Assembly (NCBI GenBank): GCA_010093605.1
Contig: MU004183.1
Location: forward strand, 1-64,000
Source of the DNA: Lophium mytilinum
Lineage: Eukaryota
Reading direction: 5' to 3'
Length of the DNA stretch: 64,000 bases
Below are positions 18,085-63,769 of the stretch, piece by piece (the first letter of the stretch is position 1; each line of letters starts with the position of its first letter). Made by a program: the position numbers and the translations under genes. Below the pieces are notes generated by a model. That model saw only the letters and a list, made by a program, of their open reading frames with translations. It was not told the DNA's origin and made no database searches.

Positions 18085-18470
18085 CAGTGAAGGAACTAGA
18101 CTGGAGCCATTTAGACTAGAGCCGGATGGAGGCACTTAAAAAAGGCATTAGACTAGACTAAGATTCTATTTAGTTAGACTAGATTTAAGGCTATAAATAA
18201 TTCTAGAGCTCTAATACTTTTTATATATATAAATATATATATAGTATTAAGGTTAATTTTTATAAGGCTTAGCTTAGAGGTCTGCAATTCTTAGCCTCTT
18301 ATTAGTTAACTTATTCTATACTAACTAACTAGCTACTTAGTCTTACTATTCTTAGCCTTACTATTTTATACTTACTATAGTCTATATACTTACTATAATA
18401 TATATACTTTTTATTTTATAATATAGCCTTTCTATTTTACTTTACTAATAGATAGCTAAGAGGTTACGCA

Positions 18471-18670
18471 TGTTATGGCCACATGTTTATACTATAACAC
18501 GTGACTAGGGTTATATAATAGAGGCTCTATAGAATAGGTAAACGTTGCTCCGCCCTTTAGGTTATTATAACGTCCGTTCTAGAAACCTCTTCCTCTCTTG
18601 TATTTATCTTTTATTAATATTAATACTATTTAATCTAATAATTCCAACGTTCTAACCTTAAGCCCTAATA
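18471..18670 (+). repeat. 5' LTR
   Basis: TGTTATGGCC...AAGCCCTAATA, colinear with 26907-27106. Confidence 0.95.
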
Positions 18671-26906: not shown

Positions 26907-27106
26907 TATTATAGCTACACGTTTGCACTATAACACGTGACTAGGGTTACGTAATAAAGGCTCTGCGGAACGGGCGAATGTTGCTCCGCCCTTTAGGTTA
27001 TTACAACGTCCGTTCTAGGAACCTCTTCCTCTCTTGTATTTATCTTTTATTAATATTAATACTATTTAATCCAACAATTCCAACGTTCCAACCTTAAGCC
27101 CTAACA
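26907..27106 (+). repeat. 3' LTR
   Basis: TATTATAGCT...AAGCCCTAACA. The differences from the 5' LTR that I compared are transitions. Confidence 0.95.
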
Positions 27107-28553: not shown

Positions 28554-28959
28554 GTATATACTATTTATACTTTCTATTTTTTTAATTAGCCTTACTATTT
28601 TATTAATTAGCCTTACTATTTTATAGTATATACTTTCTATTTAGCTATATACTTTCTATCTTACTATATACTTTCTATTTTACTATATACTTTCTATTTT
28701 ACTATATACTTCCCGTTTTACTATATAGGCCTTAATCTATCCTTTTAAATATAGAAAGGATAAGAATAGAAAGTATATAGTAAATAGAAAGTATATAGTA
28801 AAATAGAAAGTATATAGCTAAATAGAAAGTATATATAGTAAAATAGAAAGGCTAATTAATAGAATAGTAAGGCTAATTAATAAGAAGTTTAGCTAAAGCC
28901 CCGCCGGCCGGTTATATAGCTATAGCGCACCTCTATACTATATACTAACGCGTTAATAG
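28554..28959 (+). repeat. hAT transposase intron filled with an inverted array of ~19-bp minisatellite units
   Basis: Units like tatatactttctattttac at ~28560-28725 are mirrored by gtaaaatagaaagtatata at ~28765-28885. GT at 28554 and AG at 28958-28959 restore the frame into the TRWNS motif. Confidence 0.8.
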
Positions 28960-30508
28960 CTTATCTAAAATAACTAAACCTAATAGAACTTATTATTCTT
29001 AGCTATTAGCTACTTTCTAAATTACTATAAGCGCATCTAGGAGTTTTATAAGATATATATTCCCTTAGATAGCGCTAAAAAGCTATAGATAGATAATATT
29101 CTTACTAATACCTAATAGAAATAACTTAAGTACCTCTATATAAACCTGGAGCTATTCTATAAGGCTATACTTATAGTAGAAGGTTATAAGATATTACTTA
29201 TAAATTATTTTATAACTCTTAATTAGCTAGTTAATAGCCTTAACGCGTTAAAGGCTTAATTTATAGAGTTATTATATAATATATAACGGCGCACTAAAGT
29301 TAAGGTATATTAGTACCTCTCTAACTACACCTTAATAGTATAGGAAAAGGCTAATAAGTACTACCTCTTAACTAATAAGGAATTACCTGTATACTACGCT
29401 GCTATTATCTTTAATTCTTCTCTTAAGACAAAATAGTTTAATAAGAAGTAGAAACGGCACCCTATTAAGAAGAACTATATTAAGATTATAAATAAATTTA
29501 TAGAGAACTACTAGTAAAGTAGCTATTATAGTAATACTACGTATCTCTATAACTAGTAGCCTATATTACCTAAACCTATACTAACGCCTCTTTCTTAATA
29601 GCCTTAAATATATACGTCCGCATAAGACTATAAGCGCCTTAAGATTATATATAATAGTAATAATAGTAATAATAATAGCGTTACTAAGATGCCTAATTTC
29701 TATAAAGAATATATTAAGACCTCTACTATATTACCTATATAAGTATATAGCCTTAAGGGTAATAATAAATACCTCTCTATTAATAAGATAATACTATAGT
29801 AGAATAATAGATATAATTTCTAGCTAGATCTTGCATAGTTTATATTAGACATTCTTATAGTGCCGCTAATATCTAATAACTATAAAAGGCTATTTAGTAG
29901 AGCTTCTATTATACTTAAAAAGTAATGCAGGCGGCTTTAGATAGATATAATTAAGGTAAATAAATATCTATAGTTAGTATTTAGGCCGCTACTAAAGAAT
30001 ACTTTTAATAATAATATAGAATATATAGAGTTACTTAGTATATTATATATAATACTAAGCTTACTTATAGAGGTAGTAGTAGTATAGTTATAGGCCTTAT
30101 AATAGGTAGAGGTAGATTAGAAGGATAATAGTAATAATAATAATAATAGCAATAATAAAGTAGTATTAGAAGCGGCGGCAGTAGCTATAATAGCTAAGGC
30201 CAATAGTAGAGTATATAAGAAAGAGACACTTTTAATTAATATATAAATAGAAAGTATATATAAAGAAATAGGAAGTATATATAAAGGCTATATAAAATAG
30301 AAAGAATAAATAGCTCTATACTAAGCTTTAATACTAAGATTTTATAGCGCTAAACTTCTTTAGGTAATATACTAACTATTTTAGGTAACTATCTATATAT
30401 TACCTCCCTTATAGATAATTTAGGAGCGCTAGGAGCTCTATAGCAATTCCTGTAGATGGAGTAGATTTAAGGCGAAATCTAGTCCAGTCCAGTCCAGTTC
30501 CATTACTG

Positions 30509-30575
30509 CTTTAGCGTCTCCGCTGAGAACCTTAAGTATGAGCGCGGGGTCGGTGTAGGCGGTTTCGGAGGGCAT
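30509..30575 (-). pseudogene. zf-MYND paralog A, 5' fragment (start codon) stranded beyond the hAT element
   Basis: ATG at 30575 reads MPSETAYTDPALILKVLSGDA. It joins in frame through the TSD to EARRVLDQLPKEEQ and aligns with the paralog C N-terminus MPPKLNPKDPDFMLRVMRGEAEAVKVYSALP. Confidence 0.9.
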
Positions 30576-32007
30576 AATAGCTATAAGCTTAATAGCCGCT
30601 GTAAGACCTTTAGTAAGATTAGTGTTATAAATAAAGGAGGACTTTTTAAGGCAGGATGTTTTGTAGACTAGAAGTGCCTAGGTAGACCCGGAAGAAAGAT
30701 AGGCCATTTAAATGGTAAATTAGCCGTTAACCACACTTCTATCTCTACATAGCATGAACCGACACAGGGGGCTTCCTAAGCTTTACTCGGCCTCCAACGT
30801 AGCGACTCCCCCGCCTATTTTATAAGTCGAAATGCTTTATTAATACGATCAGCTACGCAAAATCAGCCAAGAAATAGACAAGAGCCAGGATGACACAGGG
30901 GGTTTGCGACCTACACTGTCACTAGCATCGTTACACTAGAAGATATGGTCCCATAGTTAGTATACTTTTCACACCATTGCCATACTTGTTACGGCAGAAT
31001 TCGGGATACGGCGGGAAGGTTTCATCCTAGGTACTTCTCAATCACCCCCGTCCTTTTCCGTACTGCTTGAACGCTCCAGCACTCCTTTAAGCAAGATCTA
31101 GACCCTAGTTCTATCGCCTAGGTCCAGACCCTAACTGTTTCATCACCTAGGGTATTAATGGCAATTCAGAGGGACCAGGATTGCTCGGAGGACTCTATTC
31201 GCCATTTAAACTTCCCCAGGCATTTACTCTCTAATACAACAGATATAAAGATCTAAGCGGGCACACATTAGACGTTACTCCGGTATAGCTTGAACGAAGA
31301 GCTAAAGTACATGTCCTGCTGCTGAAATACTCACTAGATGTTGGCGACATGACTATTAGCTATTTGTGGGGAAAAACTAGAGAATGGCGCCGAGCAGCTG
31401 TCAGGTGCTGGAACACCAGGAGAATGCCTTACGGAAGCTGGGCATATAGCAAAAGAGGGGTAAGCAAGGAGGTAAAATGAGCGTTACAAGGACCTGAGAC
31501 GGTTCCACAGGCACAGTCTTCTCATGAGGAAGGTTTGCTCGACTAGCGGCGCTATCCCTCAGCTAAAATTAATTGCGAAAGCTAAGAATCAAGCCATTGA
31601 GGGTATCAAGACTTCGGAGGAATGAAGGAACACGTTGTATGTGTTTGGAAGTGTGAGTGCTCCTCGCCAATTGTAGTCAATTTAAATGATTGATGGAAAT
31701 CTACCACATACACTACGTTACATCGAGCTACTATAAAGAGATAATAGTCGAGTTTCGTACATCGTTAGAGTTGCTACTAGGTTACCGCACGATTGTTTCA
31801 GGCACCTATACTCAACGCTGGGAATCGAAAGTGCCATGTCAACGCATAATCAGAGTGACGTCCCGGAAAAACGTAAGGGCCGGTATACGTATGCGGATAT
31901 AGTGAATTGGTAAACGACTCCGCCGAGCAACCTCACACGCTCTTCCTCGCTCCCAGACCAAACTACACACCACGTCTCAACAGTGTTCACAAGGCGGAAG
32001 TGCGAAG

Positions 32008-33392: not shown

Positions 33393-34658
33393 TCAGGCAA
33401 CCCACTTATAGTCCGGGAGTGGAAACGTCTTAGTATTGGCAAAGGCGGCACCAAGGTACTTCTGTGCGAAATCGGCGATGCCCGTCCAAGCGATAAAAGC
33501 GAAAGCGTAGTTTCGCAGCCATATCCCCCAGGTTGTCTGTGGGGCAAGAATCGTGGTGATGAACGGTGGGATCTTCTGCATTTCCTTGATGATCGGCCTC
33601 ATTTGTTGCTCGTAGCCCTTCAGACCGGCTGCGAGGTCGCCTGTATGTTTGCCAACCTCACCAGCCAAGATGTAGGCGCCGGCGAGGGCGAGACTCGTAC
33701 CACCACCGGCGGGCCCTGTCGCGTAGCCTGCATCGCCGACCAGCACGAAGCGTCCATTGTACAGACTTGGGAGCTTGACCTGGACAATCTCGCTGGCATA
33801 GAAGTCTTCGGAGTCCATCATCTCCTGCATGAAATAGTTGCTCTTCCATCCGGCGCCCTGGTAGTGTTGGGCTATGTATCTTTTGAGCGAATCGTCACCG
33901 TGGATCGAGGCCTGGCGAAAGGGTAGCGTGGCGTCGAGCTTGCCTCGTGAGTGAATGTTCATTAACAAAACTCGACTATGACCTGATGGATCTAATCCAA
34001 CACTCATAAAACGGCCGCCGACGGCACTATAACCCTGTCCCACTCTGCTTCCTTGGAGTAGATCCTGATTTATGGTGAAGTAAGCTGCCCAGGAGTTGGA
34101 TGGGATGATGTGATCCCGGACACTGCACCCAAAACCTATAGCTCGAGTCCTCGAGGTCGCGCCATCACAGCCAATGACAAGGTCGTACTTCGAAGTTGCT
34201 GATCCGTTTGCAAACTCAACTGTGATGGGACTGCCATCTGACTCGCTTTGCTGCATTGAGGCAATTTGCTCATTGAAGATGTACGTGATGTTGTCGTCGT
34301 CTTTGGTGAGGTCGAAGATAATCTTTGCCAGGTCACCACGAAAGATCTCGTACTCTGAGACGAGAGACTGCTGATCAGGATTCCCAGTGGCTCTGATGGT
34401 TCCATAAGGTCGGCCGTCTTCACGGACGAAACTTATACCCTCTTCCTGCGTTGACTTGGCTCGCACCTGAGCCTCCATGCCCGACATTTTCCGCATGACA
34501 GAGACGCCAGCGGTGCGAATGTCAACGGCCTGCCCACTAGTGCGTAGTTCCGGGAAGCGCTCGATGACCGTGACTTGAGCGCCAGCTTTGGCCAACCAGT
34601 AGGCTGTCGCCGGGCCGGCGATGGATGCTCCCACAACAAGGACCTTCAGTCCAGACAT
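33393..34658 (-). CDS. FAD-dependent monooxygenase/oxidoreductase (FAD_binding_3, aromatic hydroxylase-like), 421 aa, intronless
   Basis: Rossmann motif VLVVGASIAG, DG motif DLVIGCDGATS, and GD motif FVLVGDAGY...GGGTSLALAGAYILA. Confidence 0.93.
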   Translation of the reverse strand: MSGLKVLVVGASIAGPATAYWLAKAGAQVTVIERFPELRTSGQAVDIRTAGVSVMRKMSGMEAQVRAKSTQEEGISFVREDGRPYGTIRATGNPDQQSLVSEYEIFRGDLAKIIFDLTKDDDNITYIFNEQIASMQQSESDGSPITVEFANGSATSKYDLVIGCDGATSRTRAIGFGCSVRDHIIPSNSWAAYFTINQDLLQGSRVGQGYSAVGGRFMSVGLDPSGHSRVLLMNIHSRGKLDATLPFRQASIHGDDSLKRYIAQHYQGAGWKSNYFMQEMMDSEDFYASEIVQVKLPSLYNGRFVLVGDAGYATGPAGGGTSLALAGAYILAGEVGKHTGDLAAGLKGYEQQMRPIIKEMQKIPPFITTILAPQTTWGIWLRNYAFAFIAWTGIADFAQKYLGAAFANTKTFPLPDYKWVA

Positions 34659-36599
34659 TGTTTATGGTTGATAACCAACGAAACTAATTCTACTCTGGGA
34701 TATCCTAAAGCTTAGCGATCCAGGAGATGATTCGTGAAGGTTTCCGGCAATGAACAGGTGTATGGAGTTTCTGGCAGGCCTCCTGTGGTCCGTTGGTGTT
34801 TGACTGTCGACTGGTTGTATTAGAGGTCAATTCGACACGAAGAATGGAGGTCGAGGGTGGGTATACCGCTAGATTAGCTCAATACCCAACACAGCTTAGC
34901 GGCTTGACGAGACAAGCCATCTCTACTTCATACCATGGTATTCTGATACCTAAAATCGGTAGGATGCAAGCTTAAATATGATCATTTTATTCATGTTCAG
35001 AATAGTTCAGGCTATCAGAATGCAAGGGTATCACGATCAGAAGACATTTCAGGGTATCACGTGATGATTGATCAGAGAATGACGTCCTCTTGGAAATTAT
35101 GAGCGAATTGTGCTTCGACTGAAGCTCATCTCTCTAATAGTTCTCACAATGCCCCCGTATACTCAGCTTAGCGGGCGTTCAAATGGGCGCATTGCAGGCT
35201 TGTCGCTTTGAGAACGGAAGAGTGGTTTAGCGCTCCGTAGAATCGGCACGCGCAGGACGCGAAACCTCAATACCGACTCTTTTCCAACGGCGCGTCGTCC
35301 CAGTATCATTCTTCAAGCTTCACAGCATCCTCCCATCGCGATCCTCCGCCCCCAAGTCTTCATCTTCATACGTCCGCCTAGGTGAGCCTCTGCAATAAAC
35401 TGCCTGACGGAAGGGCATCTCGAAAGCCAGGCGCGCATAACACGACAACGACCAAGTGCAATGCATTCAGCCTATCTCCATTCCCCCCAGCCGACCCCCA
35501 AGCCGTCGAATCGCGGATCTGGACTTCTCAAGAGTCCGGAAGGTAATAGGCCCAGGCTACCCACTCTCGCTCTTGTATTGTTCTTCTCTCAGCATGTCTA
35601 GGCCGGAGATTCGGGAGAGTATGCTGATGCTGCCTGAACAGGTCTGCAATCCTCGCCTCGCAAGCGACGTAATCATCGCTGGCTTTGACGGCCTGGTACA
35701 TACATCTACGCATACCCCACTCTTAGGTGTTACGCTAATACGACAGAAGCTATAACTGCGGCCGTATTGGGTAGGGTGGTGAGGTTTTCTTTGCGAACGT
35801 CAGTTTACGATCTTCTTCAAGAGCGTTCTTACCTGCGTTTACTGCCTTCTTTCATCTCATACAAACATCAGTCCTACTGTTCCCTTCGCCGTCCACATGT
35901 ATCCTATATCATAATCATAGTGCCGTGGGAGATGCTACGCCTTGACAGGTCATGACTTTGTACTCGTGAGAGTCTGTACAGTTTCGGTTGCCACTGCCTG
36001 GGGTACTCCCCCCGAGCTTCCAGGATCTAGGTGCAGGTAAAGCTTCATGCAATGCGATCTGCGTCGTCTTTTGAATTGCCAACTTCCTGTTCGCTGAGCC
36101 ACTCCTAACGGCGATATCGAGTGAGCAACAGCAGAGCCGTGCAGCCCTGGATCCGCAGCCCTGGATCCGTGGTGACGGCGTAAGCGTTTATATAGTACAA
36201 GTAAAGCTGCCTACTGATGGGCCCACTGCACACTAACTGGACTGCCCCTAGCATTGGTTTCTAGCTGCTGAAGCGGCAGACAAGCATTGGACTGTCTGTG
36301 TGCTATGTTCCCAGGCTCATAGCACGAACAGAAGATGAAAAAAGCACCACCTAAGTTGGCCTTCATGCTGAGCATGCCCAGGAGAGCCTTCCTACTCCTT
36401 GGCTCTACATTACTACGGGCATTTTAGGCCCAATGGTCCACGAATGCTCCGAGTCCAGCCTCAAATAAGGTCTCATGCTGCTATGCGGAGAAGTTCAATT
36501 TGCCAGCCCTCCTGGGACCATTTTATTCCACAACAACGCCCGGGTATATGAGCTCCAGTCTAGTGGCAAAACTGTTCACACTTTTGCAGATATCATTGT

Positions 36600-41143: not shown

Positions 41144-44100
41144 TCATACCTGCCGAAGCTCTTCTGACAAGGGATGTTCTTCATCCCTGGGCACTGTCGC
41201 TGATAGACGGCGTCGATTTCGCCGCAAAGCCTGGAAGGCCCTCGCTGGTAACCTTATTATCGCTGTCGCCCATCTGACTAGCAACGCAAGATCGCCCAAG
41301 TATGTGTCGTCGGTCATGATGCTGGAAGAAATCTCTACAAGACGTCGATATGCTGTCCAGAACTGGAGAGGAGACATCTCCGGACGCCATCCATCCTCAA
41401 ATGTAGCGACCCACGCGTTGTGTGCCCTCGGCACGACAACAAAATAGAAGATCCCAACCAGCGGATATATTGAGGTCGCTAGCACCATGATACATAGATA
41501 AACACCAAAACTTCTCGATATATAGTCTTTGGCCGCGGACTCAAATGGGGTGAATGTCTTACTATTGGTGAAATCCATGTCGCTCACTTGTATGAAAACA
41601 CCTATTCCCCAGGTGGAGGTGTACCAGACTAGGAGAGGCAGATGGATGATGTCTACGTAGGAGATGAGAGGCGGTATGTAGGATACAAACCAAATGATGT
41701 AGAGAGTCATTTCCTTCGCATCGAGATGGTACCAGAAATAATAAAGGCCCATGCCTGGTGCGAGCGAGGGGAAGATGTGATATATGGACACGAAAAGGAA
41801 GTAGAACCAGAGCTGATGTTTGTACTTCGTGGACGGCGCGCCATATGGGTGCATAGGACGACGATGGAGGCGGCTTTCCGTTGTGTGAAAGTCTGAAAAC
41901 GGCGTTGGTTAGTGAGTTCTATAGCGTTTGCTGTTATTGCAGACGTCATTCCGCCGTATCATCAGGCAAGAAAGATGAAGACGAAGAGGAGATGAAGCGT
42001 GTTACGAACCTGCATCGATATGAAGCTGCCAGGGTCCCAGAATACTCTGGCCGAGTACATGATACTCATCCACCTGTCCAACGTGGGTATTGAGAGAATC
42101 GCAGACCTGCAACTTGAGAGGACAATCATATCTGGCATTCATGAGTACTGGTAGGGCATTCGATGCCCTATGAATCTCGGGTGTCCAATCGGTAAGGAGA
42201 CAAGCTCCCCTGATATCGCCACATTGAGGCACTGCATCTTTGCAAAAGGTCCTTTCGATCAAGACGCAAAAAGAGGCATATTTTCCGAAATCAATAGAAT
42301 CATCTTCTTTTCTGTATATTTCAACTCTGTACTGGATTCCTGTGATCAAATCCCTAATCACGATATTGCGGAAGCGAATATCCATAGACATGTTAACGTA
42401 GAGGAGCGTTGACTCATTCAGGGCGTGATCTCTACTGCTTAAACTTAGAGAGTCTTCAGTCAGCTCCATGGAAGGCTGGTTCAAGTGGCTTGCGCTTGGC
42501 TCCGTTGGCACCCATCGATTAGCGTGATCCTGGCCGCACCTCGATCTTGGGCCTGTGTTGTAAAGGAGAGATACGGGGAGCTTTGGGCCAACACTCCAGA
42601 GGAAAGTCTTCATCTTTTTTTCATGCGAGGCTTGATGTATGAGGGCGTAGGAATTAAGGTCCAGCAGGTTAGCCAAGATCAGACACAAATCGTCCCTCTT
42701 CGTTGTGGTCCGAAAACGAAGCGTATTCCAAACCGAGAGGAACTGCTCGTAGAAAGCGTCTGGTTTGGCTAGTCCGGAGAAATCACGAGAACCTCGCTCC
42801 CAGAAAGACCTCGAGAATGATTCCTGGACTTTTGTTCGTAGGTCAAGATTGACTCGGTCTGCAACAAGTTTAGGCAAGGGCCTTTTTCGACGGCCCTTGT
42901 GCCTGCTCCACAGTAACGAGCGCGTCTCTTTCAATGACTCTCTTGCCCAATGACTAAACTCAGAGGGTAGGATACGCAATATCATAGTCATCGCGCTCAC
43001 TCGTCCATAATACATGTCTCGATAGGATGGAGGGCCAGTGTCTAGGTCGAAAATTCCATCGCCCAGCTGAAATCTGCGAGACCGAGCGAGTTCACCCTCT
43101 TGTAAAGTCCAGCAGCGAGTGTTCCACGCGCAGCATAAAATATGGCCTAGAATTTCTGACTCCTGCGATGCTCCCATGCGAAGTTCTTGCAGCTCTGAGT
43201 CGAGGACTAGCACTTGGGAAGCCGCAGCATAAATCAAAGCCATTTGATTAATAGCTTTACTTCGAAGATCTGCATACTCGTGGCCGACGGGAATGCAAAG
43301 TGTGTCCATCCAGAAGAGCTTCTTCCTGCTACCCATGCGAAACCCAGATCGACGTGCCATGTGGACGCTCAGCGCCACTAAGCCGGTGAGCCATCGCGAA
43401 GGGTGTTCCTTAGAAGACGGAGGAAGGCGATCTAAGGAGCGATGGATTCGCCTGAGTACACACTGGGGTAACGCGTTATCAGTGGGGTTCCCCATGCCGT
43501 CTGACCAAACGTGGGAAATGGCAACGTAAGAGCTGGTGGCTTCTAGCTTTTCAACCTCGAGACGAAGCCCCTGTGGATGCTCCGTGATGGATATCAGTGG
43601 TACACCGCCTTCTTGGATGATTTGCCGTAAGCGCTCAACATCTACTCGAACCGGGAATTGGGAACATTGGCAGCGGCCGCAGTCCATAGGACGGGGCGGC
43701 CCCAGAGAATTGCCTTCTTGAGCGGAGCAACGACATTTTGAGCAGACATGCTTCGTGGGGTAGGTATCCATATCGATGTTATTAGCAATGCAGCTATTGC
43801 GCGTGCAACGACTGTGGGTGAGCTCCGGTCTATATCGACGATGAAGCTGAGAAAGATAATACACGACCGCGATGTGGTGTCGAGAGCATAAGTGAAATGC
43901 TTGGAAGGGACACCATCCAGCATCTGTCATTCTTGTTATCAAGAAGCGTGTGGCTGGTGAGAGTTTGCTTGCTGAGTTTGAGGGGTCTAAAGCTGGGATG
44001 ACTGAGCTCGGATGTTGGTGCTTCGGGAACATATATACCGACAATGCATACATCAGCACTTTGATTGACAGAGTGATGGTCGCCAGAGGACTCTCGAGGG

Positions 44101-44527
44101 CAATTTGCGTGTCAGCACGCAAAATGTGCTCTCCAGCTATTTCTAACGTGAGCCAGAAGCGCCACGTTCTGTCAGAAGATGACATGTTCAGACCGGCAAG
44201 TAGGCTGGGGCTCCATAGACGCTTAGTCTCGACGATGGTGACAGTGGATCCATCGGGAAGCGACTTTTGCTTGGTAAACTCTCTGTGGTCAAATGTATAC
44301 CCGAGAAACTCAGATATAAGTCCGAAATATAGCCATGATTGTAGAAGGGACGCAACCTTCTGAGTATTGTCACACTGGAAGTCCACTTGTCCTCGCTCTA
44401 TCGCGAACCCACAGTGGGTGGGAAAGAGAGCGAAGGTTCCGAGTCTCTCATACGGGACGATTGATTCAGCCAGCGGGACTTCGATCGGAGCAAGTACGCC
44501 GCCAGGCGGCTGTGGCATGAAGTCCAT
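41144..44527 (-). CDS. HET-domain (heterokaryon incompatibility, PF06985-like) protein with C-terminal multi-pass membrane region, ~1088 aa
   Basis: Exon 44527-42010 (MDFMPQP..., LQSWLYFGL, YVAISHVWSDGMGN, FWMDTLCIP, AINQMALIYAAA..VLVLD, WNTRCWTLQEG). Intron 42009-41893 (GTTCGT..CTAAC..CAG) joins in frame to the hydrophobic 41144-41854 ORF. Confidence 0.9.
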
Positions 44528-44704
44528 TGAGGTGTTTCTCTGTGCCCCGGACCTGGGCACGTGCAAATATGAAGAGGGTAGACAAGAGCCACAAATCCCA
44601 AATGACCACTGGCTCGTGCTGAAATGGGAGTCAAAGTATGTTCAGGATAAGAGATTCCAAGGCTGGAGAAGACACGAAGCGTCGAAGAGTTGACGTTACC
44701 TAGG

Positions 44705-51914: not shown

Positions 51915-53264
51915 CTACAGCTCCTCCTCGTCAGATTCATCGCCAGTGTCTTCTGACTGGGAGTCCTCCTCGGCCTCATCGTCTCTGTCCTCAGACTCAA
52001 GATAGCTCATCCCTTCCCAGGCGCCGTCCGCCCTCAAAGTGCCCACGGTAGGGAAGATGGCCATCAAATCGTAAATATTGAGAAATTTCCTCAAGGAGTC
52101 GCACTGCTCGCATTCTGGACCCTTCTTTGTGCAATCCACGGTAGAATGAGAGCATCCAGGGTAGAAGAAGGCCCTGCAAGGCTCACCTTCCGAAATGAAC
52201 TCTGCCCACTCATCTTGAGTAGCTCGCAGGATGAGGTCTCTCTTGGGGGTGCGACCGGGACCTTCACTCAGAAACCGCCATTTTTTAGATACAACGGCAA
52301 CGATCTCCTTGTAGGACATCGCTCCATAGCCTGCCTCCACACCCTCCCAATCAAAGTCGGCCAATTGATAGTCGTAGGGGACGCCATTTTCGTCGGTGTG
52401 TCTGTCGTCTTCGTCAAGAAGAGCGATGAGCTCATGCACCTCGTCAGTGCCCCAGCTTGGATCAATAAGGTTTGCAAGGCCTCGCCCGCGTGCATGTATC
52501 TCGGCCTTGAGACCGTTCACAGTTTTGTCGTTGTCCCACTTCATGAGAGCGTGAACCATAGCTCTCTTGGGTGGCTTTGGGTCGTTGAAAAGATGCGAGA
52601 TGCCCCGCTTTTGGAGCTCCGCTTTTAGCATGGTCGTATCCTTCTTTTGCATCCAGGAATTCTCTCCTTTTGGGCCCCCATTCCATGAAGGTAGAGCAAC
52701 GTTCCACTTCTTACGATTCTTGGTATGTTCGTAAGTCTTGGGAAGCTCTTGATTTTGTGAGGGTTTTCCACGGCGGGGTTTGTTCGATTGAATGGAAGAC
52801 TGGGAGGCTTGTGGGTTGTTGGCAGGAGCCTGTTTGCGGCTCTTAGGGACGGCAATCTTGCGCTGGGGTGCGTGGATCTCATATGCACCCTTCTCGAAGG
52901 CCTGCTCTAAGGTATCCATGAAGTCTTCTTCGTTGTTGGTTGAGTCTTCTTCTTCGTCGTCGTCGTCGTCGTCGTTGCTTTGGTTTTTGTTCGTACCAGC
53001 CCATGTACTAAGCATCGATCTCGGCTTCTTGGTAGGCCGATTCGCATCGATGGCCTGGAGTGGGATACGTCCATCCTCAGTGTCATCATATGGACGCTTC
53101 GTCCGCCTTGAGGGACTGATCGGCGCAGCGAATGGTTCCGGAGAGCGAGACTTTGATCGTTCCGTCCTCCTGCCCGTGTAGACTTTCACTTTCATCATGC
53201 GAGGGTGGCCAAGAGCATTTCGCTTATAAGCACCAAACGCTCGTTGTCCGATAACAATAGCCAT
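51915..53264 (-). CDS. Putative nuclear protein with three SAP/HeH-like helical repeats and acidic tracts, ~449 aa
   Basis: Probable ATG at 53264 (MAIVIG). Repeats TTMLKAELQKRGI..KRAMVHALMKWD, TVNGLKAEIHARG..ELIALLDEDD and YGAMSYKEIVAVV..KRDLILRATQDE. D-box-like RIPLQAIDAN; Cys cluster near the C-terminus. Confidence 0.7.
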   Translation of the reverse strand: MAIVIGQRAFGAYKRNALGHPRMMKVKVYTGRRTERSKSRSPEPFAAPISPSRRTKRPYDDTEDGRIPLQAIDANRPTKKPRSMLSTWAGTNKNQSNDDDDDDEEEDSTNNEEDFMDTLEQAFEKGAYEIHAPQRKIAVPKSRKQAPANNPQASQSSIQSNKPRRGKPSQNQELPKTYEHTKNRKKWNVALPSWNGGPKGENSWMQKKDTTMLKAELQKRGISHLFNDPKPPKRAMVHALMKWDNDKTVNGLKAEIHARGRGLANLIDPSWGTDEVHELIALLDEDDRHTDENGVPYDYQLADFDWEGVEAGYGAMSYKEIVAVVSKKWRFLSEGPGRTPKRDLILRATQDEWAEFISEGEPCRAFFYPGCSHSTVDCTKKGPECEQCDSLRKFLNIYDLMAIFPTVGTLRADGAWEGMSYLESEDRDDEAEEDSQSEDTGDESDEEEL

Positions 53265-53904
53265 GTCTGCACAGTAGAGTATCACGTGGAAGATTGGTGA
53301 AAGGTCTGGATAGAAGCAGAAGACTTGGCGAGATGGAGACTGACGAGTTGCTAGGGTGTGGTTGCTGGCGTGTGGTGGTTGCCAGAGAAAGCTGAAGGGG
53401 AAATGAAATTGGTTGCTGGGAAGGGGGTTTAAATGCGGACTGCGAAGCAATTTTGGCATCCAGATCACGTCGCTCGCCTGTCTTCGCGCCTCCGCGCCTT
53501 TCACTCCGCACGGACCTTTCTCAGGGATCAGGGCGGTTTGCGGCTGTCCATGGAGGTTCCGCGCCTTTCGAGCCTCTTTCTACTAGATTTTTCCGGGCAC
53601 TCGCCCGCTTTCCAACCAATCAGAGGGCGATGAAAGCGTCGCGGTCGTCGCCTCGTCCTTTTGTTGACCGCTTCGATTTGGCGCCCGGTAAGGCGAGCCA
53701 GGAGGTTCCCGAAGCGATCACTGAATTCACTAATTAGGCACCACGAGCGCACTATTTCCCGCGCGTAAACTCTGTCAACCTCTCCTACACCACACCGACG
53801 CTCACGACACAGCACACATCACACTATCTAGGGCTTTCGCAACTGCACATTGCCACTCTAACTCTATATATCTCATCGACTTCTGAGATAGTTTCCCAAA
53901 CAAC

Positions 53905-56038
53905 ATGCCATTGCAAGCCTCCCGTCACGCTGCTCTCCGCGACATCGTCAACCCCAAAACTACGACCCAGAGTGTCAGCAAGAACAACACTCGGAAAGGC
54001 GTCGCGAGGAAGATCCAGAAGAAGCGCCCTGTGGGTACGTAATACTAGTGCTGTACTATCTCTCGTTCATACTAACCGCATCATCTTAATAGACGACAGC
54101 GACTATGATCTCGATCCACAGACCCTCCCTTCTCGTCCCATGTCACGGGCGCAGTACGAAGAGCTTTCCTTGCCAAAGCTCGAACTCTTGTGCAAACGCG
54201 ACGAGGTTGATTTCTCTCGGCGCTGCCTTTTCACGGCGAAGCAAATCGTGGAGCTTCTTATCACATTAGATCAACGCGGCCTCGTGAGCGATAGGTCTTA
54301 CATGGACTCTGATGAGGACATCAGCGACGATGATATACCAACTCCGTCCAAGTCCACGGGCCTGCCCCAACACATTTTGGAAGCGCCTACAATGCCCGAT
54401 TCGGTGAAAGGAAACGAGAAGAAGCGAAAATGGGCTCCTGTACCAGATGAAGAAGATGAAGACCGCGTATTCAAGGGGCCTCGTCAGGGCGAGCAAGCTG
54501 TGGCGCCTCGTGCTCGATCTCGTCTTGTGCACGCTGTTACTCGTCCCGCCAGCATTCACTGCTCCAACCGCTACATCGAAAATAACCCCCCGGGCCCTCT
54601 GGATGCTTCCCCGTCCACAGCAGCACCAGGCCCGAAGCCATATCTTGCGTTGAGTTCATACGAGCTGGAGCGCGCGTTTAGGCAAAGAGCAATTCGCATC
54701 AACACCACTGAGGAGTTTTGGCTTTGTCTAATGGGTTTTATGGATGAGATACGCCCTGTCAACGGCGAGACCGACTCAAGAAATGTGCGTCGCATCCAAC
54801 GTCTCAAGGATGACTTCTTGGAGAGAGTGACACGGGCACGCTGCAAGGTGTTGATGGCACTACATAACAAGGATAAGGAGGACAAAAACTTTGAAGATGC
54901 CGAGTACGACGCTGTGAGTATATTACCCGTGAATATGCAGAGCATGGAACTGGATGCTGATACCCAAGTTTGGATGGTCAATGCCGCCAGACAGCTAGCG
55001 GAGCTAGTCACCATGAGCTTCGCATTAGGGGTAATCCCCATGATAGCACCCCGTCCTGAGACGAGGTTCAAAGACTCACCTCTTCCAAAGCCATCGCGTT
55101 TGGAAAGCGACCCCCTCGTCCAGCAATGGAAGCGGCAAGACCATGCTACCAAAGAAACGATTCAAAAGGAAAAGCTTCGCCAAGGGCAGCTGGTGAACTA
55201 TGGGCTCAAGAGAGAGCACTTTGAGGCACAGAAGAAAAGAGAACAGCCTAGAATTAAGAAGGAGGACGAATGCGAGACAAAAATGCAGCTGCAAGAGGAG
55301 CTTGAGCGGTCAAACCAGACAAAAACAGCGGAAGAACTGAATCGCGCTGAAGAGTTGAAGCGAGCGGTAAAGCTTGAACGGGACGAAGAAACAAAACGGG
55401 TAGAAGAGCTGGAGCGCGCAGAAAAAGTAAAGCTCCAGCAAGAGTCAGAGGCACAAGCGGCAGTTGATGTTATCACTGCAGATATTGCTACCACATCGCT
55501 AGCCCCTGGGGAGAAGGTTAAGCGGCAGCTAGCACAAGGGAAGTTGAAGGCGGAGAAGTTACGACTTCGCCTAGAAGAAGAGAAACATGTTACGGAGGAT
55601 AACATCAAGAAGGAAGAGGTAATTATAATTCATTCATACCATTGAAGAAGGCTAAAACGCTAATTGTACATCTAGATATGAATGGCTACTTCATGTCTCG
55701 TCAAAGAGGACGATGCGACGCAGCAAAGGTGTTGGGATATGAACAAGGACCTGGAGCCAGGATCTAAAGGCCACAAGACCTACCCCCTCAGTGGTAGCAG
55801 ATACTCTCCTGAGCGCGAAGAGCAACCTAGAAGGCTCGAAAAGCTTAGCAAGGCCGACCCACCGAGACGCGCTCCAGAATCAGACTCAAAGCACGGCCAT
55901 CGACCTCTTGCTGCTTCTCTAAACCCGCCGACTAAGCGCAAGCGAGTGGAATATGCGCCAAAGATGCCTACAGATGACTCACCACGCAAAAGGCCAGTGC
56001 GTGGGGTTTGTCGCGGAGGAGTTTTTGGCATCCGCTGA
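53905..56038 (+). CDS. SAP/HeH-like + conserved helical domain + coiled-coil protein (family member 1)
   Basis: Exons 53905-54034, 54093-55618 and 55676-. Contains YEELSLPKLELLCKRDEV..AKQIVELLITLD. Exon 3 opens ATA TGA, so the protein either ends at 55681 (~553 aa) or a nonsense codon interrupts a frame open to 56038. Confidence 0.75.
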
Positions 56039-56774
56039 AAGATGTAGCCGGGTCTACATCGTCTTCCTATTGTACAGTTTTAAATATCAGCTCTACCTCC
56101 AATATACACATTGCAATCATATTCGCAAGTTCTGCTGTACCTTTTCATGCAAAATGACGTGATATGACCAATGACAAATGCTGAATACATGATTATAGTC
56201 GAGAAACGTCGGTGATTATGTGCAGTAAAGCGCTCACCCGTCCTCTTCATTCCAAAACCGTATAATGTCTTCATAAAAACTTCCCTGCGCTGGCTTGCAT
56301 TAACCTCTCGTGTAATACTAAGCAGGTTTCTTCCTATGCAGTAATAGCGGCCGAACGCAAGAGCGGTAAGGATTCCTTGAACAAGATATGAACATTTTCA
56401 AGAGTAATCCACCTACTCTGAGCAATACGCCTCTGCTGCAGATTACTGAGGAATCGTCTAACGCGGTCTGTAGGATGGGCTTCTTCACTACTTCGACACT
56501 AGCGCAAGAGTTGACAGCGTAGTGCACCTAAGAGAGGTTGCATTTGAATCTTCCCACGCTCGCCAATGTGTTCTGTTTTCTCACTTTGATGGCCGACGGT
56601 AAACCATTCGAGCAAACTCCGTATCGATTTCAGACAACCTATTTAAGTCTTTCAGGTTTTCAGCTTTTTATTCCACTAGCCGACATCTTTTGCTAAAAAC
56701 ACCACAACTCCACATCGTCCTGAGTACACCATCGAGCTGCCGTTTAGCCCCCTCAGACACAGAGCACCGCAACC

Positions 56775-57592
56775 ATGTCTTCCTCGCGTAACTCAATAAG
56801 CAATGACAGCCAGGGCCCTTTGGATACTCCTACAAACGAAGATAGACCCAGGCCGTTCCATGAGCTGGGGCTGTACGACCTCCAACGAGAGTTCATGAAG
56901 AAAACAAGAGACATCGTCCACAACAGTGCTGAGTTCTGGCAGTGTCTCGTAGACTTCATCTACGAGCTGCGCCCAGTAGAAGGCGAGACTCCACCCGACG
57001 GGGTAAGAAAAATCCAGGCTATGAAGCTCAAATTCCTGCACAAGATAATAGAGGTACGCTACAAGGGGTTAATAGCTATCACCGCCGATGATGAAGAAGA
57101 TGCATCTAACCTAGTAAGTTTAAAGCATGTCAGTATATAGAGCCGTACGCTGATGCGCTCATTTAGAACGAAATTGCTACGTCAATACTGGCAACCTCAC
57201 ACCCGAAGCAAGACTTTGTAGATACCAACGCGGCCACTCTTCAAGCAGCCTAGGACCGTTCTCGGGTTGGATCTAGTGACCAGGCTGAGCCCAGCAGAGC
57301 GAGAGAACCCAAGCAGAACTTCCTGGCAGCGCAGTAGGTCAAGCAGGATCAAGATACACTTGCAAAGGAAAGGCACTTGCGGGAGTCGCTTTTAAATAAC
57401 AGGCTGTAGGATGAAGAACTCGAGAAGCAGATACAGTTTCATAGACAGAAGTGCGCAAGAGAAGAAAAAGTTCGCAAGCAGGAAAAGAGAGCTTTGAAGC
57501 AGCGAAAAGAAGAGGAGAAACTTCGAGCGGAAAAGGCGCGCAGAGCGAAAGAAGAGCGCCGATCCCCGGGCGTGCGGAAACCGTAGAAATAA
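56775..57592 (+). pseudogene. Family member 2, pseudogene with three internal in-frame TAG stops
   Basis: Exon 56775-57113 PRPFHELGLYDLQREF..EFWQCLVDFIYELRPVEGET aligns with member 1 PKPYLALSSYELERAF..EFWLCLMGFMDEIRPVNGET. Intron 57114-57166. TAG at 57251, 57335 and 57407. Confidence 0.8.
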
Positions 57593-58890
57593 AAGAAGGA
57601 ACAAAGACACCCGAGAGCCCACTGCGTCCAATGTGCCAAGTTGTAGGGAGAGACAAGGCTCTGGAGTCGGGGAAGAGGACGTCTTTGGGATCTGATGAAT
57701 AAAGCGTCGTATAACGCGATAAACGGCTTCTATGGTAGAAGATAATTAGCCTCGACTTTAGCGCATTCTACCATGATGTTTAGGCTTCTTCCAATGAAGT
57801 TTCTTACGGTCTGATGAACGTCGGCTTGTTTTACCATATACTAGAAAGGCGCAGGTTTGAGTTTCTTGCGTTGCTGAAGAAAACCGACCGTTTTAGCAAG
57901 CAAATCGTGACTAAATCATCATATTCCAGGCAGACACGGATAGTAAGGTAGTAATCACTCAGATTGCTACTTGTTTGATATCTCGGAAAAAACGGCAGGT
58001 CTTGCGAGCGGGGAAGGGGGACACTTGTAAGGCTCGGAGACAGAGAGCAAACGTGACATCAAAATCGATTAAGCGGTTTCTATATAAGACCTCCTACCCC
58101 TCTATAACGTGCTTCATACGATATATATTTATCTTTCATATTGCTTTAGCCTTTCTTCGTAGTTCGTCACACCCTTTACAGCATACTACCAGTCTCGAGG
58201 TTGTATTAGAACATTGTGGCTAAAATGGAAGGACAAAACCTCATAAAGCCTCCACCTTGTTAGTTTAGAAAGCAGCGACGAGGCTATTTGCGCATGGAAG
58301 GGCGGTCCTTTGACGTCGGCTTGCCGGAGGGCTAGCGCCGTGCTTCCATTGTAAACAATATAATCTTTACATTGTGCAGCACTAGTCTGTCTATCTATAG
58401 CTATTTACTCCAATCGTTCTGCTGTGCGTGGTCACGTGTTGTGCCTCTCCGGTGGGCCTGGCATCCGCATGCCAGCTGAAACCAGGGGTGGAGGAAGGCC
58501 TTTGACGAAGCGTTCGGGTGACACGTGACCTAAGCGAGATCGTGCGTGTTCCGAACGTCCTTGGGTAAGCGACACACTGGCACAGTGGAACTGATGTTGC
58601 TTGAGGAGCCGCCATGGTGCGTTGTTCAAGGAGGCTCGATTCACTATTGAGTCGGCATAGGCACCAGGAGCGACCAGGTGTCGCGGCTCGAGCCGGCGCA
58701 CATTCACCACTGCAACGTGTCTAGCGCACTACTTAATCGTCGCCTTCCACCTCCGAAGCCCTCTTCTTTCTCTCACCAACGTCCCCAGCTGTCACACCCC
58801 CACCAACACCAAACTCCTGCAACCATTGCTCCTTCACATAGCAATCCAGCTTCTCTCATCAAACCATCTCTTCCTCCTCAGTCAGCTACC

Positions 58891-61542
58891 ATGCCTTCCT
58901 TTTCTAAGCTCGGTTCGGACAAGGAGAATAACGTCGCGACCAAGGGTGGGGTGCATAGAGTAAGTCCTCTGTTCCTATGCCTGCTCCCTACAGTCTGCTC
59001 CCCGCTCCCATCTAGCCTTCTCGTGCCTACTGATATCTGGTCGTGACTTGTCCCACCTTATCTAATCATTATCTAGACCCAGCATCCAGAGCAGTCTCGC
59101 ACCGCCCTCGGTGAAGACACCAATACTCGACTCCCCGTCCCCAAGAAGGGCACCGCCCAGACCACCTCCGCCCCTCGCAGGGGTGTCGCTATCAAGAAGA
59201 AGCGCACTCTTCCTGACCGTCCTTGCGACCGAGAAGTCTATAACGACCTCACAGAGGACGAGCTCTGGCGCCTGTGTGAACGGGATGAAGTAGAGATCGA
59301 TGAGACGAAGATCAGGACGAAGAGGCAGATCGTCGAGTGTCTCGTGAACCTCGACAACAAGGCAATGCTCAGAGACTCCGACCTCGAAGAGACCAAAGAG
59401 GAGGTTCATTCACCTCCACCACCTAAAAAATCTGGACGGGAGCTGCGTGCTCGCAGCCCACCCACCCAGTCCGCCAAGATTGAGCCAAAGACCACGAAGC
59501 GCAAGCGTGACGACCAAGACGACGACTCCAATCCTGTCATGGCTAAAGCTCCTCGCCAACGGAAGGCCACAGCGTCTCGTCCTCGAGTCGCTGCCACTTC
59601 CACCATGACCTCCGCTACCCCCACTGTAGCTCCCTCCATCACCTCCACCATCCCCAATAGCCAGCCTTACAACAAGATGTCCCTCAAAGACATAAAGGAT
59701 GTGGTCATGACGACCGTCGTGGAGAAGGACCATGACACAAAGCTTTGGCATGCTCTCCTGGCCTATGCTTACGAGATCATGTTGGAAGAGGGCGAGGTGA
59801 ACCCGCTCGACTCGCGCGAGGTTGAGGTACCCCTCTCCAAATTGATTGAAAAGATCCTTGAGCATTGCGCTCCTCGCAGAGAAGCAGACGGAGGTTTGAC
59901 CTTCTTGCGATCGCTCATGAAGCGCTACGACGAGCTCGTGGTAGTAGAGAAGAAGTCAGCAGATGAACAGAGAGTTGGCGAGGGGCGCGAGCGTGAACAG
60001 AAGACTAAGTTCGAGAAAGCTGCCAGACTCCAAGAAGAGGCTGAACGTCTTCGGAAGCAACAGCGCCGCAAAGAAAAGACGACGCGCAAGGCCGAGCAAG
60101 AGAAGAAGCGAGAGGAACAGCAGCAGCGAGAGGAGGATGACACTCGCAAGCTGGCGAAGCGAGAGACCAAGATCGAGGCCCAGAAGCGAGCCGAAGTCAA
60201 CACAGACATCTTGGCGAAGACATCTTCCTCTTCTTCAAGTTACGTCCCCTCTGCGCCTGCTCCCCATAAGCTCACTCCCTTGGAAAAAGAGCTGGTCGAC
60301 CTCCGCCAGCCCAGCATCTACACCAACAAGCCACCTCCTCACTCCGACGTCACTCGTGGCATCATCAGGATCCAGAAGTGGGAAATGCTGTGGTCACGCC
60401 CTAGCCGAATTTCAAGGCGAGGAAATATCCGCAGTATGGAACCAGAGTACAACATCCCGCACTACTTGATCCCCCCGTACGTCCGAGTCGGTCATGTCAT
60501 CCGGAAGCGTGTCGCTGTCCAGCGTGAAGCGAAAGACATATTCGCTTACCGCAAGGCGAAGGCCCTTACGGACGTCTCCACGGAGGAGTGGCGTGAGCGT
60601 GGAAAGATCTATAAGAAAGGAAAGAAAGCATTGGAGACTTGGAAGGAGTCGAAGATACCCTCCCATACGAGAGCCAAGAAGAACTTCGTGCACGCGGTCA
60701 GGCAACAACTGATCTCGTTGAAGGGGGCCGAAGAAGATATGACCCAGGATGATGTAAGTGTCGCAACTAATGATCTTGTATCAAAGGCTGACAAGTATGC
60801 ACAGGTTCTCGTGGCCGCTTCCAAGTCTGTCGAGAAAAAAGAGACGATCACTGACTCACCAAAGAAGGAGAACGCCTCTTCTTCCGAGCAACAGGTAATA
60901 CCACTCCGTATCGTTGACGTGATACACAGTGCTGATACATCTTTACAGAAGCGAGAGCCTGGGCGTAAGATCATCGTCGAAGATGGCGGTACGCAAGCAT
61001 GGCGCCGCGAACTCAACCGGCACCTCCGCGAGGACAGCGAGGGCCTACGTAAAGGGGGCCTCGCCGCGAGCCGGCACTCTTCTCCGTCGAACGACTCGTC
61101 ATCCAACGAATCAATCGATACCTTCACTGCCCGCGTAAACCCAAGAACCGGGCTTCTCGACACCTCCGGGAAGGCCGCACTTCCTAAGTCCTCGGTACCG
61201 CTGGATGCGCTCGCGGCTATAAAGCCGGTATACAGGAAGCGCGCCCGTGACGAAGATGGCCAGGATGAACAAAGGCCGCACACGAAGAGGTCTCGCCTGG
61301 ACCGCGAGCCGGCAGTACCAAAGCCCACCTCACGCGCTGCTCCAAAGACTACTTCAAGGGCCACCCAGCAATCATTTGCACCATCGGCCAGTCGCTCCAA
61401 GAAGTGGGGCTACGAAGAGCATGACCAGCCGCCGCGTGCTTACGGCCGGCAGGGGAGGGCTCAGCATGGACCTGCCCCCAAGCAGAGGAGGCATTATGAT
61501 GATGATGTCAGGGAACGTGACTACGGGTCGCGCTGGAGATGA
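58891..61542 (+). CDS. SAP/HeH-like + helical domain + coiled-coil protein (family member 3), ~844 aa
   Basis: Exons 58891-58959 and 59077-61542 join in frame. LPDRPCDREVYNDLTEDELWRLCERDEV..TKRQIVECLVNLD matches member 1. KEN box DKENN, D-box RTALGEDTN, basic NLS-like patches. Confidence 0.85.
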
Positions 61543-62608: not shown

Positions 62609-63769
62609 CTACGCCTTAACCACCACACTAACCGCCTGACACATCGTCGCATTGTAGACCACGACCTCCCTGATCTTCAGCCCCGCCTCTGCAAACAACG
62701 CATCCCACTGCCCCCTCGTCCTCTCCAGCGCTCCCAAATGCGTCATCATGGCCAAATCCAATACAGCCGCTTGCCACGGCACCCCCGTGTCCGTCAACAC
62801 ACAATCATCCACCAAGATCACACTCTCCGGGCCCATCGTATCCCTGATATTCCCTAGGATCGTAACGCAGATATCATCCGGGTAATCGTGTAGAATGTTC
62901 CTGAGGTAGTAAATCCGCGCCCCTTTGACCGCTTGCGGGGTGTGGAAATCCTGCGCCACGAGCTCAATCCCCTCAAGCCCTTTCCCGAACGCCTTGACGT
63001 GCGCGATCGTCTCTGGGAGGTCCTGGAGCACGAGCTTCCCTTTCTCCGCAATCGCGGGGTACTTCTCCTTCAGCGCGACGATTTGCTGCCCCAACCCACC
63101 CCCAACATCCACGAATACCGCCTTTTCAGGCTCGCTCCACTTCCCGAGCTCTTTGTCTACCGGGAACACATCCAGCCAGCTCACGCCGCGGTGGAGTCGC
63201 ATAGCCTGATGCAGCCACTCGAACTCTTCGGGGTGGGAGCGGAACCAGTCGAAGCAGGCGAGGTCGGTATTGAACGCTTTTTGGAAGGGCGTGTGCGTGT
63301 TCGACGTTATATTCTGGTAGTTAGTCTCTTTGAGGAAGTCCGGGGTGGCCTGGATGGCAGGACCCAAAGTGTTGAAGAGATGATTGATGCCGCCATTAAG
63401 CACAGGCTGGTCCAAAGCGCGGGTGACAGAGTTGGGCGCAAAGGTGTCGGTACCGGTTTCAGCAATCGTACCCGTAGAAGCGAGGTAGCGGAGGACACGA
63501 CGCAGGAGCTCGGAGGATGCGGAGGTCTTTTCGGCGAGGGCAGCGACGGTCACGGGCGTCTTGCTCTGGGTCAGTGCAGGGAAAAGTCCGAGGTCGACGC
63601 CGACTTTGATCATTGCCACCTGCAAGTGGAGCCCCGTGAAGCGCATGGCGGTGTCGTAGGGGGTTTCAAGGGAGTATTGGAGGTCGCGGAGGGAGCGTTG
63701 GATGGCCTGGCGGCCGAGCTCGTTGGTGTTCGCCGCTAGGGCTTCGACTTGGGATATAATAGACTCCAT
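62609..63769 (-). CDS. SAM-dependent O-methyltransferase (Methyltransf_2, fungal secondary-metabolite type), 386 aa, intronless
   Basis: Winged-helix dimerisation region, VFVDVGGGLG, LVLQDLPE, AQDFHTPQ, YYLRNILHDYPD, LDLAMM..LGALERT. Confidence 0.95.
   Translation of the reverse strand: MESIISQVEALAANTNELGRQAIQRSLRDLQYSLETPYDTAMRFTGLHLQVAMIKVGVDLGLFPALTQSKTPVTVAALAEKTSASSELLRRVLRYLASTGTIAETGTDTFAPNSVTRALDQPVLNGGINHLFNTLGPAIQATPDFLKETNYQNITSNTHTPFQKAFNTDLACFDWFRSHPEEFEWLHQAMRLHRGVSWLDVFPVDKELGKWSEPEKAVFVDVGGGLGQQIVALKEKYPAIAEKGKLVLQDLPETIAHVKAFGKGLEGIELVAQDFHTPQAVKGARIYYLRNILHDYPDDICVTILGNIRDTMGPESVILVDDCVLTDTGVPWQAAVLDLAMMTHLGALERTRGQWDALFAEAGLKIREVVVYNATMCQAVSVVVKA

Follow-up and report, generated by a model that had tools for sequence, protein, structure and literature searches.

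The closest described systems to the genes considered here are the SAP domain proteins (PF02037), among them Tho1, PIAS/Siz1, Ku70, SLX4 and Hcc-1, whose motif was reportedly described by Aravind and Koonin in 2000, and the LEM/HeH (helix-extended loop-helix) proteins of the inner nuclear membrane, such as emerin and the fungal Heh1/Src1, Heh2 and Lem2/Man1. The LEM domain binds BAF, and the SAP-like domain of MANF and CDNF binds BiP. ER/K single alpha-helix (SAH) spacers and coiled-coil rods form a further category. A cluster of four genes (designated G1 to G4) was analysed at positions 51,915 to 61,542 of a 64,000-nucleotide stretch of Lophium mytilinum DNA (contig MU004183.1, positions 1 to 64,000 of the forward strand; hereafter the window). 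The cluster is tentatively read, with a confidence a little short of even, as a family of disordered nuclear proteins, restricted to one lineage, that would serve as adaptors or tethers; two kinds of them carry a module that resembles the SAP/LEM fold in structure models.

The starts and ends of all four genes had been placed correctly in a preliminary description made from the sequence (ATG codons at 53905, 56775 and 58891, G4 stop at 51915 and end of the G3 open reading frame (ORF) at 61542). The genes are:

51915-53264, minus strand: G4, a single exon encoding 449 amino acids (P0005); orthologue P0006
53905-56038, plus strand: G1, exons 53905-54034, 54093-55618 and 55724-56038, encoding 656 amino acids (P0001); orthologue P0002
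56775-57695 (end approximate), plus strand: G2, a G1-type copy in decay that lacks the HeH part
58891-61542, plus strand: G3, exon 58891-58959, 5' intron 58960-59076 and long ORF 59077-61542; orthologue P0004

The three intact genes (G1, G3 and G4) were 96-100% identical to deposited L. mytilinum proteins, the G1 product being a 100% match.

The three plus-strand genes are paralogous, as had been proposed, and their BLASTP similarities were far above chance. G1 and G3 were 25% identical over 272 amino acids (E = 3e-15), in an alignment which spans a basic patch, the LPxRP...LCxRDEV...QIVE motif, a KRK cluster and the FW..L..E.....GE helical domain; the longer pattern previously noticed in both, LP.RP..R..Y..L....L..LC.RDEV....T..QIVE.L..LD, was recovered in it. 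G2 was 40% identical to G1 over 104 amino acids (E = 7e-22) and also matched G3 (E = 9e-7). Exon 1 of G2 (56775-57113) is intact, comprises 113 codons and codes for the helical domain alone, and no HeH part was found upstream of it. It is followed by a canonical intron (57114-57166) and then, in the homologous frame, by TAG stops at 57251, 57335, 57407 and 57584. Similarity to the K/E-rich part of G1 persists in the stop-bearing frame (E = 8e-7), and what is left of the ...VFGI C-terminal tail sits in a different frame (a weak match, E = 0.058). Given the in-frame stops and the frame-shifted tail, the earlier designation of G2 as a pseudogene is the best reading of its sequence; a short product of 141 amino acids may be made. 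The TAG stops are compatible with CAG or TGG to TAG changes by repeat-induced point mutation (RIP), yet the regional indices (TpA/ApT 1.05, substrate index 1.16) are below RIP levels.

Outside the L. mytilinum genome, G1, G3 and G4 each had one relative, in every case in Mytilinidion resinicola. The G1 orthologue (P0002) was 38% identical, the G3 orthologue (P0004) 51% identical by BLASTP and 55% in a MAFFT alignment, and the G4 orthologue (P0006) about 50% identical; with 38-51% identity between genera, the description of the proteins as rapidly evolving appears plausible. The 821-codon ORF of G3 stays open across the two genera and has long invariant blocks. All three orthologues lie on a single 666,694-bp M. 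resinicola contig, where G3 and G1 are probably also close together, to judge by their tags (481872 and 481874).

Word-index searches with G1, G3 and G4 returned two proteins each at E ≤0.001 (the query's own protein and one M. resinicola orthologue) among 7999, 8000 and 2933 scored candidates, respectively; these searches ran within length windows, and shorter proteins, such as a G2-like product, fell outside. An exhaustive HMMER search with a G3 orthologue profile found three proteins at E ≤0.001 among 1,835,955,588 representatives (P0004, P0002 and P0001), all belonging to L. mytilinum and M. resinicola. No Pfam family reached threshold on any protein of the cluster. A profile search of PDB sequences gave one chance-level row for G4 (E = 0.71) and none for G3, and the ESM Atlas provided no usable match, all structure rows having a template modelling (TM) score <0.5 on models with a predicted local distance difference test score (pLDDT) of 0.42-0.47. 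In the part of the Lophium mytilinum literature covered, no title or abstract opening pointed to the family, which has no name to search by. The family thus stands as undescribed, as had been suggested. Within the reach of the libraries its relatives appear restricted to Lophium and Mytilinidion, two genera of the Mytilinidiaceae (Dothideomycetes).

Two kinds of small HeH-like module were located in the cluster, on the following segments:

52521-52661, minus strand: SAP/HeH-like repeat 1 of G4 (model residues 8-54: short helix, helix, extended loop, helix)
54116-54292, plus strand: HeH-like module of G1 (LPxRP...LCKRDEV...TAKQIVE), placed by alignment to G3 and strongly conserved in P0002
59197-59376, plus strand: HeH-like module of G3 (model residues 41-100)

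AlphaFold2 models were made from residues 24-319 of G3 (5-row alignment) and residues 195-449 of G4 (2-row alignment). The G3 model had a mean pLDDT of 51, with block means of 73-92 across residues 41-100, where the model has two helices, the first of them short, then an extended loop of 12 residues and a longer third helix. The G4 model was confident only at residues 8-54 (pLDDT 75-83), where the layout was that of the G3 module. The models were compared with 48,161 chains using VIA-align. For the G3 module, matches were obtained to the Rho N-terminal domain (1a62; Z 5.5, root mean square deviation (rmsd) 2.5 over 48 residues), the CDNF C-terminal domain (Z 5.2), the emerin LEM domain (Z 4.9, rmsd 2.4 over 44 residues) and the Ku70 C-terminal domain (Z 4.5). 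For G4 repeat 1 they were to Rho-N (Z 6.1), the Hcc-1 SAP domain (5.4), emerin LEM (5.2 and 5.1) and SLX4 (4.8), and further rows on the modules included the SAP domains of SF3B2, E1B-AP5 and MANF, as well as PIAS1 and FAN1. Taken together, the module matches had Z of 4.3-6.3 and an rmsd mostly of 1.6-3 Å over 40-50 residues. Foldseek gave short, tight superpositions on Rho, SLX4 and the Tho1 SAP domain, and on 3'hExo for G3: Rho-N superposed with an rmsd of 1.6-1.8 over 41-46 columns and the Tho1 SAP domain on G4 repeat 1 with an rmsd of 1.7, SLX4 and Tho1 having 26% identity over the module.

A number of observations weigh against the preferred reading of the cluster, of which this fold is a part. 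The alignments behind the models are shallow (five and two sequences), and Z values of 4.3-6.3 are within reach of common helical arrangements. Unrelated VIA-align rows at similar Z were interspersed among the named ones, Z ≥5 was reached by only 8 and 10 chains, and Z ≥8 by none. With both whole models as queries, Foldseek returned no row at E ≤0.001, all E-values being above 1. The Pfam models for SAP, LEM, HeH and Rho_N all scored below threshold. Finally, module net charge was -5 for G3 in both species, -1 and +1 for G1, and +2 for G4 repeat 1, and the acidic to near-neutral modules of G1 and G3 are atypical of DNA-binding SAP domains.

The best Pfam SAP score was 12 bits (E = 0.17; cut-off 23.9 bits), on G4 repeats 1-2 and covering profile positions 9-20 only. 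No SAP match was found at E ≤1 with the G1, G2 and G3 queries or the 514-amino-acid G4 ORF, nor at E ≤10 with the isolated G1 and G3 modules. EAD7 (PF19960), a bacterial conflict-system adaptor domain, scored 22.5 bits on the G3 module (E = 1e-4), below its cut-off of 32 bits, and 16.8 bits on the 821-amino-acid second-exon ORF, and did not match the G1 module. When the G1/G3 family was compared with G4 profile to profile, the probability was 0.4%, so homology between the two kinds of module is not detectable. The resemblance of the modelled module to the SAP/LEM/Rho-N fold is taken to be real but modest in score, since the domain has only about 45 residues. Of the earlier proposal of SAP/HeH domains, the helix-extended loop-helix fold is present in the models of G3 and G4 repeat 1, whereas membership of SAP by sequence was not upheld. 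Three SAP-like repeats had been counted in G4; repeat 1 was modelled with confidence, repeat 2 is a sequence pattern only, and repeat 3 is weak, half of it missing from the annotated protein of the orthologue.

Beyond the module, G1 and G3 contain the following segments:

54626-54862, plus strand: family-specific helical domain of G1 (PKPY...FW.CL..F..E.RPV.GE...)
55145-55597, plus strand: K/E/R-rich helical region of G1 (45% charged, 20% LIVMF)
59659-59937, plus strand: family-specific helical domain of G3 (low-confidence model, pLDDT about 44-53)
59941-60213, plus strand: E/K/R-rich helix of G3 (57% charged, 12% LIVMF)
60265-61302, plus strand: G3-specific conserved C-terminal region (long invariant blocks shared with the orthologue)

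A histone fold was considered for the G3 helical domain and rejected because the helix lengths in the model deviate from the short-long-short histone pattern; histone-fold chains appeared at Z 4.3-4.8 among mixed, unspecific VIA-align rows. The charged stretches had been called coiled coil, which holds in part: they are mainly E/K/R-rich (LIVMF 11-12% in G3 and 19-20% in G1), and a heptad-like pattern was seen only at the end of the G1 stretch. According to a crude, uncalibrated script, heptad a/d occupancy was at best 0.35-0.37 overall and rose to 0.62-0.75 only where the G1-type region ends. By composition, a single charged helix would be a closer description of the G3 stretch than a coiled coil. 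For the C-terminal region of G3, no known family or fold was found in Pfam, by PDB sequence search or in the Atlas.

All six proteins (three per species) are hydrophilic, with a grand average of hydropathy (GRAVY) of -0.99 to -1.14, and none has a signal-peptide-like N-terminus. Much of their sequence was modelled with low confidence and is probably disordered. The maximum Kyte-Doolittle (KD) mean over 19 amino acids was 0.45-1.03 in five of the six; the value of 1.69 in G1 fell in a stretch absent from the orthologue, and no conserved transmembrane-like segment was present, no conserved 19-amino-acid window exceeding KD 1.1. KRKR/KKKR basic clusters are conserved between both species, and for this reason we infer a nuclear location. 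The earlier view that the proteins are nuclear fits all of these features.

On the preferred reading of the cluster as a lineage-restricted family of nuclear adaptors or tethers, G1 and G3 would be two old, retained paralogues and G2 one decaying copy, with G4 next door, which has no detectable sequence similarity to G1 or G3 yet appears to carry a SAP/HeH-like module too. The proposed order of parts in G1 and G3 is a short N-terminal linear-motif region (conserved between orthologues in G3), a basic patch, the HeH module (about 45 amino acids), a KRKR-type nuclear localisation signal (NLS), the helical domain and the E/K/R-rich helix, to which G3 would add its conserved C-terminal region of about 300 amino acids. 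Docking to chromatin, or to a partner bound there, would fall to the HeH module; the charged helix would act as a spacer or rod, and the remaining conserved parts would recruit partners. Since the net charge of the G1 and G3 modules is negative to about zero, direct DNA contact is more likely to be made by the flanking basic patches; alternatively, the partner of the module may be a protein, as BAF is for LEM.

The preliminary description had gone further, reading the proteins as substrates of the anaphase-promoting complex/cyclosome (APC/C) recognised through destruction box (D-box) and KEN motifs, timed to mitosis or meiosis and acting in chromosome segregation or drive. The motifs concerned are:

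53040-53069, minus strand: RIPLQAIDAN of G4 (amino acids 66-75), with N one residue too far along for RxxLxxxxN
58921-58929, plus strand: KEN of G3 (amino acids 11-13), KES in the orthologue
59098-59124, plus strand: RTALGEDTN of G3 (amino acids 31-39), the sole strict RxxLxxxxN of the cluster

This explanation is judged unlikely, and what favours it lies chiefly in G3. There, RTALGEDTN sits in a low-confidence (pLDDT <50), probably disordered N-terminus, is kept in the orthologue as RPALGDDTN and opens a conserved island, RxALGxDTNTRxPVPKKGTAQ, within an otherwise less conserved N-terminus (columns 31-50 have about 16 of 20 residues identical, and columns 21-30 only 3 of 10). Of the six fixed positions in the D-box consensus of B-type cyclins, RXALGXIXN (PMC10487953), it meets five; the exception is position 7, which in both species is D and not hydrophobic. 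The pattern R.ALG...N arose in only 19 of 20000 shuffles of G1, G3 and G4 combined, but it was picked after seeing the sequence, and its chance rate of about 7e-7 per residue leads to several random matches expected per fungal proteome. Eleven other ORFs of the window (4074 amino acids) contained neither a strict D-box nor a KEN. When each protein was shuffled 5000 times, one or the other arose in 8-19% of cases, so that their presence alone is not beyond chance. KEN occurs only in G3 of the cluster, and both copies (amino acids 11 and 603) are lost in the orthologue. Of the three D-box-like motifs originally cited, one fits RxxLxxxxN: HAALRDIVN of G1 lacks the R and belongs to a stretch absent from the annotated N-terminus of the orthologue, and RIPLQAIDAN of G4 is RISLQPIDVD in its orthologue, where RxxL and the I at +7 are kept and N is lost. 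Conservation, judged from one orthologue per gene, extends only to RxALGxxxN of G3, though a single orthologue and a generally conserved block are weak evidence that the motif itself is conserved. The cluster also has no ACGCGT element and, contrary to its earlier labelling as accessory, occurs in a second genus as well. In L. mytilinum it is part of a 2.72 Mb contig, and all three intact genes have orthologues on one M. resinicola contig. APC/C control is possible for G3 only, going by its sequence, and is unsupported for G1 and G4, and the earlier interpretation overreaches on degrons, cell-cycle or meiotic timing, drive and accessory status. The boldest form of this idea is very improbable: G3, perhaps with G1 and G4, would be a Mytilinidiaceae-specific chromatin tether with a cyclin-B-type D-box, destroyed by APC/C at anaphase or G1, and a private component of segregation or meiosis whose duplication and decay reflect a conflict such as drive.

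The remaining explanations concern what the module binds and what the family is. Should the HeH-like module be a protein-protein adaptor and not a DNA or chromatin binder, the family would be scaffolds of some other nuclear or cytoplasmic complex, which we consider rather unlikely. The net charge of the G3 and G1 modules argues for it, as do the CDNF/MANF C-terminal domains (with BiP) and emerin LEM (with BAF) among the structural matches and the sub-threshold EAD7 score; effector-associated domains (EADs) are small, non-enzymatic and mostly alpha-helical, paired copies recruiting effectors or signalling components (PMC7159879). Set against this, EAD7 is a bacterial family and its score stays under the curated cut-off, the module is flanked by basic patches and NLS-like clusters, and G4 repeat 1 is net basic. 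That the genes are instead fast-diverging orthologues of a widely conserved nuclear family, below HMMER detection, so that the family is not new, is quite unlikely. The low identity between two genera of one family would suit it, as would the mostly low-complexity or low-confidence, quickly eroding sequence, but the profile search of 1.84 billion representatives reached nothing beyond the two species, and Pfam at threshold, PDB sequences and the Atlas were equally unproductive. It is highly improbable that the gene models are spurious or non-functional, as expressed junk or mobile-element remnants in a repeat-rich region. The decay of G2, the RIP-mutated repeats at 1-14 kb and 18-31 kb and the want of a known domain are consistent with such an origin; by contrast, long ORFs with invariant blocks are open in two genera, RIP indices of G1, G3 and G4 are at the level of normal genes (TpA/ApT 0.51-0.76), splice sites are canonical and no transposon domain was found by Pfam.

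The deposited G3 model (P0003) has 886 amino acids, extends the C-terminus to about 61940 and splices out introns at 60757-60807 (51 nt) and 60895-60948 (54 nt), both in frame and stop-free. If both were retained, the reading frame would continue through them and the protein would gain 17 and 18 residues; both segments are also missing from the annotated protein of the orthologue. All splice sites checked were canonical except a weak one at 61507. In G1, about 55 residues (amino acids 553-607, 55724-55890, plus strand; QRCWDMNKD...SDSK) have no counterpart in M. resinicola, which may be a difference in intron annotation, and the C-terminal tail KRKR...GV(F/Y)xIR is conserved in the orthologue. 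The G4 protein is hydrophilic and net acidic, running from an N-terminal RxxL through the SAP/HeH-like repeat(s) and a C...CxxC stretch to an acidic tail, and its start, MAIVxGQR, is kept in the orthologue. In its C-terminal stretch (51990-52170, minus strand; PCRAFF...ECxxC), three of five cysteines are kept in the orthologue, and the acidic tail ending in EEEL is present in both species. The spacer between G4 and G1 is:

53265-53904, no strand: G4-G1 intergenic region, 640 bp between divergent start codons

It is presumably a shared promoter. The MluI cell-cycle box (MCB) element ACGCGT was found neither in this spacer nor elsewhere in the cluster; the window contains 12 copies against 9.4 expected, none beyond 49361.

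Gene-bearing DNA in the window has a GC content of about 50%, while AT-rich, strongly RIP-mutated blocks (GC 26-37%, TpA/ApT 1.6-2.0, (CpA+TpG)/(ApC+GpT) 0.15-0.47) occupy the two repeat intervals named above. A 4-kb gene island of normal GC lies between these blocks (1-14000 and 18000-31000). A Pfam scan of the window ORFs identified GH92, zf-MYND, FAD monooxygenase, HET-domain, F-box-like and O-methyltransferase genes as neighbours, an ordinary set that appears typical of a variable fungal region. The GH92 glycosyl hydrolase (14332-16492, plus strand) is split over the overlapping frames 14332-15891 and 15815-16492, whose products cover profile positions 1-277 and 279-463, with an intron or a frameshift as the cause. 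The HET (heterokaryon incompatibility) domain occupies amino acids 372-481 of an 879-amino-acid ORF (42002-44641, minus strand), the remainder of which has no Pfam match. An FAD-dependent monooxygenase (33393-34661, minus strand) and an O-methyltransferase with a dimerisation domain (62609-63769, minus strand) may serve secondary metabolism as tailoring enzymes; among the window ORFs scanned there was no core synthase.

If the nuclear adaptor or tether reading is true, the cluster provides lineage-private fungal nuclear proteins built from one ancient small module (HeH/SAP) and disordered charged sequence, and an example of such genes duplicating in tandem and then decaying. A cheap and specific hypothesis comes from the RxALGxxxN of cyclin type that is conserved at the G3 N-terminus. 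Taxonomically restricted, disordered proteins of unassigned role are common in fungal genomes, and the value of the cluster is chiefly that of an annotated family and a modest lead, without a tie to an open question.

Compared with B-type cyclins as APC/C substrates, G3 has the similar RTALGEDTN in a flexible N-terminus, kept in its orthologue, and differs in having no cyclin fold or other similarity to cyclins, an acidic position 7 and no conserved KEN; G1 and G4 fall outside the consensus RXALGXIXN (PMC10487953). The Rho_N domain (PF07498) was the top-ranked named HeH-type domain for both models (1a62), but is a bacterial family without a sequence match to the cluster, so the resemblance is one of fold only. 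With the LEM/HeH proteins, the cluster proteins share in the models a small fold near the N-terminus (emerin LEM, Z 4.9-5.2, rmsd 1.6-2.4), likewise at the level of fold; they have no conserved transmembrane segments and no other Pfam domain, including the C-terminal MSC type, and are therefore not membrane-anchored proteins of this class. The likeness to the SAP proteins is that a helix-extended loop-helix of about 35-45 amino acids occurs in hydrophilic, nuclear-type proteins, the models superpose (Z 4.3-5.4) and G4 repeat 1 has a first helix of the LKAELQKRG type. The cluster copies differ from them in scoring under the Pfam cut-off, in the acidic to near-neutral G1 and G3 modules with their own LCxRDEV...QIVE motif, and in a remaining architecture that matches no SAP protein found. 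The charged stretches, with an overall heptad occupancy of only 0.35-0.37, may be either coiled coils or SAHs, and resemble the SAH and rod category in extending over 90-190 amino acids with 45-57% K/R/E/D.

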